Source: a virus
Taxonomy: Duplodnaviria > Heunggongvirae > Uroviricota > Caudoviricetes
IMG/VR virus record: IMGVR_UViG_2721755728_000011
Length of the DNA: 64,000 bases
Direction: 5' to 3' (one strand)
Positions 43,758 through 43,817 of this stretch are shown here, one piece after another. The notes beneath the pieces are model-generated. The model was given only the letters and a program-made list of their open reading frames with translations, was not told where the DNA came from and did not search any database. Positions within the stretch are counted from its first letter, which is position 1, and the number at the start of each line of letters is the position of its first letter. The translations under genes were made by a program, and so were the position numbers.

Positions 43758-43817
43758 AAATAGAAATAGAAATAGAAATAGAAATAGAAATAGAAATAGA
43801 AATAGAAATAGAAATAT
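43758..43817. repeat. Hexanucleotide tandem repeat (AAATAG) x9 plus one imperfect unit
   Basis: Read directly; lies about 315 bp upstream of the 590-aa ORF start. Confidence 0.95.

Follow-up and report, generated by a model that had tools for sequence, protein, structure and literature searches.

The AAATAG tract upstream of a candidate effector gene in a lambdoid prophage is the typing locus VNTR-9 and lies within an IS911-like relic

The hexanucleotide repeat tract at positions 43758-43817 of this lambdoid prophage is an already known MLVA locus, VNTR-9 (also called O157-9, Vhec4 and TR1), and it lies inside the internally deleted remains of an IS3-family insertion sequence. A first-pass annotation of the window (the whole 64-kb stretch of DNA analyzed here) had proposed that the tract is a contingency locus controlling the downstream gene, which encodes a protein of 590 amino acids. 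From the anatomy of the locus and its comparison among genomes, we infer that the tract is probably a neutral, slippage-prone microsatellite in a dead insertion sequence, and thus a by-product rather than a dedicated switch for the 590-aa gene.

Direct reading of the plus strand gave nine perfect AAATAG units at 43758-43811 followed by AAATAT at 43812-43817. Tandem Repeats Finder reported one array at 43758-43816 (consensus AAATAG, period 6, 9.8 copies, 100% matches), the sole microsatellite of its kind in the 64-kb window, and a 24-nt (AAATAG)4 query, allowed up to two mismatches, matched seven times in the tract against 0.00 matches expected from 100 dinucleotide-preserving shuffles. The tract is separated by 315 bp from the 590-aa reading frame, which starts with a TTG at 44132, and the ORF list places it outside that frame. 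On its other side, an HNH endonuclease gene (42996-43562, minus strand; Pfam HNH_3 and RefSeq annotation) has its start codon 195 bp from the tract and shares the minus strand with the genes for NinG, a Ser/Thr phosphatase and the antiterminator Q. The first-pass annotation had described nine perfect units and one imperfect unit, lying about 315 bp upstream of the 590-aa ORF and next to divergently oriented HNH and ninG genes, and all three points agree with what we found. This stretch of the window is 100% identical to the bovine E. coli strain C3 (NZ_CP010119).

The published repeat unit and primers identify the tract as VNTR-9. TR1 in Noller's MLVA scheme has the unit AAATAG and the forward primer ACTGCATGATAAGCCTCAGG (PMC2246123, table 2), which matches the plus strand of the window exactly at 43665-43684; the forward primer of the PulseNet-type locus VNTR-9, GCGCTGGTTTAGCCATCGCCTTCTTCC (PMC3321953, table A1), matches the same strand exactly at 43547-43573. 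Vhec4 and TR1 have been equated with VNTR-9, whose position is that of the EDL933 ORFs Z3935/Z3936 (PMC3321953). Among 202 German O157 isolates, VNTR-9 displayed 15 alleles of 6-23 repeats with a diversity index of 0.90, and null alleles made up 31.7% (PMC3321953). During serial passage, Vhec4 acquired two single-unit insertions, equivalent to a rate of 4.3-4.6e-5 per generation for the strains involved, and one point mutation (PMC3777172), and the copy number of O157-9 varies both within and among O157 clades (PMC10062581). The tract itself is ordinary, in routine use as a PulseNet-type MLVA locus.

The segment that contains the tract had been described in the first-pass annotation as an AT-rich gap. 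Its low GC content is real, but it is not an anonymous spacer, being mostly a decayed IS3-family element. A sensitive blastn search with 43580-44131 returned thousands of matches to IS911/ISEc52 transposases at 66-75% identity, and these matches span 43616-43955, on both sides of the tract. Pairwise alignment with IS911 (locus L017) placed 43607-43780 on orfA (1492-1664, 73% identity) and 43796-43955 on 1644-1803 (74% identity), and translation yielded OrfA-like peptides, including QKQIEIHELKKK and EILKQTTTFLMS, together with stop codons and a frameshift. Given these IS911/ISEc52 alignments and OrfA-like remnants, the gap is an internally deleted, stop-riddled relic of the IS3 family (IS911/ISEc52-like) that occupies ~43576-43990 on the plus strand, in the same orientation as the 590-aa gene.

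Both ends of the element have been kept. The best-preserved part of its IRL (43588-43611) is identical to IS911 at 24 of 24 positions (L017 1356-1379); extended to 43569, the IRL matches ISEc52 at 37 of 43 positions, and its tip falls at the left edge of the cassette described below. Pairwise alignment indicated that ~112 bp following the IRL, including the orfA start, have been deleted. Past ATACTGGAAAAA, the alignment resumes only at the right end of the insertion sequence, where 43944-43993 matches ISEc52 (L016 2540-2591) at 38 of 52 positions. In ISEc52 this 12-mer is found at both ends of the deletion, which removed ~740 bp from the relic and with it most of orfB. The deletion junction and the degenerate IRR together occupy 43944-43990; the IRR is ~70% identical (18/26, aligned by eye), and that of the E. 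albertii copy of the relic is closer to the IS911 type. No target-site duplication was recognizable around the relic.

In its order and orientation of parts, namely the IRL, orfA with its helix-turn-helix and leucine zipper, the start of orfB and the IRR, the relic resembles IS911 and ISEc52. It differs from them in its identity of only ~73-74%, its internal deletions, stop codons and frameshift and its confinement to a single locus, and it is not an active element: intact orfA and orfB with a programmed -1 frameshift are absent, and no transposase is encoded. The relic is also like IS-derived MITEs, which have both terminal inverted repeats around an internal deletion and no transposase, but unlike them it shows no sign of mobility, having one location per genome (at most two), which in all contexts inspected was next to the HNH gene. 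We rejected the idea that it is a mobile MITE, because in complete E. coli genomes the sequence is found at one locus only.

The alignment with IS911 also suggests how the repeat may have originated. The tract is aligned against the ATTGAAATGGAGAATGAAATA segment of an IS911-like orfA. At this position IS911 reads ACAACGC-ATTGAA-ATGGAG-AATGAA-ATATTAAAA, corresponding to the orfA codons R-I-E-M-E-N-E-I-L-K of the leucine zipper, and the window reads ACAAC-(AAATAG)9-AAATATTAAAA; in the ancestral orfA frame, ATA-GAA specifies I-E. We suggest that the three imperfect hexamers of the OrfA leucine zipper (ATTGAA ATGGAG AATGAA, then ATA, encoding IEMENEI) were the seed of the tract. With orfA dead and its coding constraint lifted, a few substitutions could have produced perfect AAATAG units, which would then have expanded through replication slippage, and the present copy number would drift in whole units by slipped-strand mispairing. 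VNTR-9 would on this account be a clean example of the birth of a repeat in a pseudogene.

Together with the 590-aa gene and a 458-bp tail, the relic belongs to a low-GC cassette of 2783 bp (43580-46362) that replaces 98 bp of ninF. The cassette is delimited by blastn comparison with the PEC422 prophage (L003), which has an intact ninF: homology to the window stops at 43579 and resumes at 46363, so that the interval between these positions is the inserted segment. GC content is 0.26-0.40 in the cassette versus 0.44-0.55 outside it. The cassette is also present in two Stx1-converting phages and in one E. albertii prophage, and it is missing altogether from prophages with an intact ninF, which still have the same HNH-ninG-Q genes. 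The IS911-like relic forms the left end of this 2.8-kb insertion, which interrupts the ninF gene of a lambdoid prophage; the 590-aa gene would have its promoter downstream of the relic.

The tract also exists without the gene. In O157:H7 strain SS52 (L002, junction 4270/4271), homology to the window ends at 43830, IS30 follows, and the 590-aa gene is absent. Strain SMN197SH3 (L018, ~3000) has the reciprocal IS30 junction, with homology from 43832; here the gene has been kept, and the tract and the HNH side have been lost. These two reciprocal junctions, which put the IS30 insertion point of other strains at 43830/43831, imply an IS30-mediated rearrangement of the ancestral insertion. O157:H7 VNTR-9 and the window locus are alike in their AAATAG unit, their left flank, the exact sites for both forward primers, their HNH-ninG-phosphatase-Q neighbors and their whole-unit polymorphism. 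They differ to the right of the tract: O157:H7 has IS30 at a distance of 13 bp and no 590-aa gene, whereas the window has an undisrupted flank and the gene. The window locus is orthologous to VNTR-9, and its right flank represents the pre-IS30 state.

This difference bears on typing. The reverse primers of TR1 and VNTR-9 have no site in the window, even with 2-3 mismatches allowed, and both anneal inside the IS30 of the O157:H7 locus (L002 4386-4405 and 4483-4513). Since this IS30 is absent here, the standard primers would return a 'null allele' for the window strain. The placement of the reverse primers in IS30, which is missing from the ancestral locus, suggests one source of the frequent VNTR-9 null alleles; O26, O111 and O145 genomes with an intact cassette, too, carry a tract that could be typed but would escape the standard PCR. 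Our literature searches found no paper that ties the VNTR-9 locus to a transposase or its null alleles to a primer in IS30, and nothing relevant to a functional role of the AAATAG VNTR or Z3935. The derivation from an IS911-like leucine zipper and the primer-in-IS30 account of null alleles are small additions to a known marker.

To describe copy-number variation, we searched complete E. coli genomes for the left flank plus tract, which were found in 523 of 5426. Loci covering the full 296-nt query were 272-338 bp long, nearly all in 6-bp steps. In a systematic sample of ~50 genomes, with units inferred from alignment lengths, these lengths correspond to ~6 to 17 units in a broad, unimodal distribution centered on 8-10. 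Within serotype O111:H8 alone, which carries the intact gene, the locus measured 622, 628, 652 and 664 bp. Units counted directly numbered 9 in the window and in O157:H7 SS52, 16 in the Stx1 phage SH2026Stx1, 7 in O26:H11 11368 and 6 in the E. albertii prophage, and the first unit is a variant AAACAG in some alleles. The IS30-type (O157-type) locus had 10-16 units in the five full-length matches usable from a census query that was swamped by IS30 copies. The tract was perfectly pure and at least six units long in every genome examined, which could reflect either high turnover or selection.

These data confirm that the tract is prone to slipped-strand mispairing, as the first-pass annotation had supposed, given the whole-unit variation seen here and the two single-unit insertions reported during passage (PMC3777172). 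That annotation had also called for copy number to be compared across related genomes and had named invariance as evidence against its proposal; the comparison reveals a hypervariable locus, and the proposal therefore does not fall on this ground.

Promoter-like sequences were sought around the tract. A scan of 43400-44300 for the sigma-70 consensus found no site, and a lenient position-weight-matrix scan had its best plus-strand candidates at 43963-44030, all of them weak and none near the tract; matrix scores of at least 6 occur ~5 times per kb in the window, so that all promoter predictions here are weak. The best candidate promoter of the 590-aa gene (44002-44030, plus strand, matrix score 6.2) consists of TTGACG at 44002 and either TGTAAT after 15 bp or TAATAA after 17 bp, and is contained in a block (43978-44036) in which the cassettes of E. 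coli and E. albertii show 100% conservation. Between the same cassettes the relic flanks are ~91% identical and the ORF 95%, and the flanks would appear to evolve as unconstrained sequence does. If the site at 44002 is the promoter, the end of the tract would lie 185 bp upstream of its -35 element. The A3 tracts within the repeat are spaced 6 bp apart, out of helical phase, and no large static bend would be expected. An Rfam search of 43400-44300 at a permissive E-value returned nothing, and the plus strand has no predicted intrinsic terminator in the interval that separates the relic from the 590-aa gene.

Two further features were noted in this interval. The strongest promoter-like sequence of the intergenic region, TTGATA-19-TAAAAT (score 9.3), is on the minus strand at 44092-44062 and points toward the relic and the HNH gene. 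A 15-nt inverted repeat (44037-44051/44073-44087, 93% complementary, 21-nt loop) follows the candidate promoter and precedes the ribosome-binding site of the 590-aa gene; it could be an operator, but it is poorly conserved in the E. albertii cassette.

Promoter-proximal contingency loci include the (TAAA)n repeat that precedes nadA in Neisseria meningitidis and the 7-bp repeats in front of hmw1A/hmw2A in Haemophilus influenzae. Those tracts separate defined regulator sites from the core promoter, or the promoter from the start codon, and their effect on expression has been measured. The tract in the window is similarly slippage-prone, lies upstream of a virulence-type gene and changes by whole units, but it differs in that it belongs to an IS pseudogene, a good distance upstream of the candidate promoter, and outlives the gene. 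It is a hypermutable simple-sequence tract that falls outside the gene's reading frame, its core promoter (as predicted here) and any defined regulatory site, and it goes with the IS relic rather than with the gene. In O157:H7, with the gene removed, it is still among the most variable MLVA loci. Conversely, no tandem repeat was found upstream of the 71% E. albertii, Salmonella and Providencia homologues of the gene at the loci examined, which were obtained from the contigs encoding the homologues; for the 71% E. albertii homologue, homology with the window begins only at 44108, 24 bp ahead of the start codon. Because the tract persists without the gene and homologues of the gene exist without the tract, the tract belongs to the IS relic and not to the gene family. 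The proposal of a contingency locus for the 590-aa gene is opposed by these observations, as well as by the position of the tract in a pseudogenized orfA, 185 bp from the conserved promoter-like site.

Three ways in which the tract might act were weighed against neutrality, and none has positive support from the anatomy of the locus or the comparative data. As the first-pass annotation proposed, the tract might be a contingency or tuning locus: the number of units might shift the spacing or helical phase of an upstream regulator or nucleoid-protein site relative to the 590-aa promoter, and so bring about reversible, heritable changes in expression. This would suit a hypermutable tract that is upstream of a candidate virulence gene in the same cassette, in an AT-rich region (AT-rich DNA is the kind bound by H-NS), and that varies in unit number within one serotype carrying the intact gene. 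Such tuning is nonetheless unlikely given that the tract ends 185 bp from the conserved promoter-like block with no promoter-like site nearby, that the host sequence is a transposase pseudogene with flanks evolving like neutral DNA, that variability remains where the gene has been deleted, that other members of the gene family are without the repeat, and that the length distribution is broad and unimodal rather than bimodal. Alternatively, a residual promoter in the IRL could produce a transcript through the tract, in which (AAAUAG)n would alter the stability or translation of a ~540-nt leader of the 590-aa gene. IS911 has a weak promoter in its IRL, and no part of the relic is better preserved than this end (24/24 identical); the gene is co-oriented with the relic, and no plus-strand intrinsic terminator is predicted before it. 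We consider this very unlikely, however, in view of the deletion of 112 bp after the IRL, including the orfA start, a best promoter-like score of only 4.5 for the IRL region in the position-weight-matrix scan, the failure to find an Rfam family or other structured element, and the lack of a precedent at this locus.

A role on the minus strand can be imagined in two forms: a hydrophobic micro-protein of variable length, or modulated read-through into the HNH-ninG-Q operon. An antisense ORF listed at 43713-43883 reads the tract as (FL)n and stays in frame whatever the number of units; only where the tract is long does PGAP annotate it, as a hypothetical protein. Read-through could start from the promoter-like TTGATA-19-TAAAAT, and in lambdoid phages the nin region is transcribed in the HNH-ninG-Q direction, which is the same way. 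Against both forms, direct reading revealed no Shine-Dalgarno sequence in front of the ATG at 43883; the ORF runs antisense to a transposase pseudogene, and in O157:H7 an IS30 interrupts it; and prophages with intact ninF that lack the segment still have the same HNH-ninG-Q genes. The ORF is probably spurious, almost certainly an annotation artifact whose presence is set by copy number, and a minus-strand function seems extremely improbable. A broader speculation, that a microsatellite derived from a leucine zipper now serves as a tunable element, upstream or in the leader, and sets the expression of a candidate effector in EHEC, EPEC and E. albertii, likewise strikes us as unlikely; if it were true, VNTR-9 would report a functional state in strains that retain the gene.

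The tract marks the edge of a cassette whose uncharacterized 590-aa protein may be the more interesting object at this locus. Its gene (44132-45904, plus strand) has AGGAGG before the TTG start codon. Pfam, NCBIfam, PADLOC and PDB-sequence searches with the protein yielded nothing useful, and it matches PHROG 9230, a family of unknown function. Homologues are confined to E. coli, E. albertii (93% and 71%), Salmonella enterica (48-51%) and Providencia alcalifaciens (50%); a related-locus search of genome contigs with the protein produced no confirmed locus. The 71% E. albertii homologue adjoins NleF and an AvrPphF-ORF2-like gene, and the Salmonella homologue forms an islet between a cytidine deaminase gene and a DUF218 gene. 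AlphaFold2, run with a 19-sequence alignment, returned a model too poor for a fold search (mean pLDDT 39, pTM 0.28), and the N-terminal ~125 residues, modeled with very low confidence, show little predicted secondary structure and contain the motif LTLNDFLD in repeated form. Given the restriction of the family to enterobacteria that bear type III secretion, the NleF and AvrPphF-ORF2-like neighbors and these N-terminal features, the most plausible reading is that the protein is likely a type III secretion effector. We also considered an anti-phage defense gene and rejected it, there being no PADLOC hit and an effector-type neighborhood. The motif, in the form (S/E)LTLNDFLDN, occurs twice in the 590-aa protein, at residues ~50-59 and 75-84, and the alignment consensus suggests that Salmonella homologues of 648-685 aa have more copies of it.

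Several observations concern the surrounding nin region. The HNH gene sits exactly at the ninF/ninG junction, and 43534-43579 matches the ninF-ninG junction of many prophages without the HNH gene, as a homing-type insertion predicts. The 5' part of the HNH gene contains a 20-bp unit, CTTTTACAGTTAAATCGTCT, twice at 43504-43544 (80% match), which is also present in the E. albertii prophage. Lastly, at 46587-46847 and 46949-48162, ninB is interrupted by an IS3-family element that has a programmed frameshift, and a second IS3-family copy, frameshifted, lies further on in the identical RefSeq genome; these disruptions indicate that the prophage is degraded in its replication and nin region.
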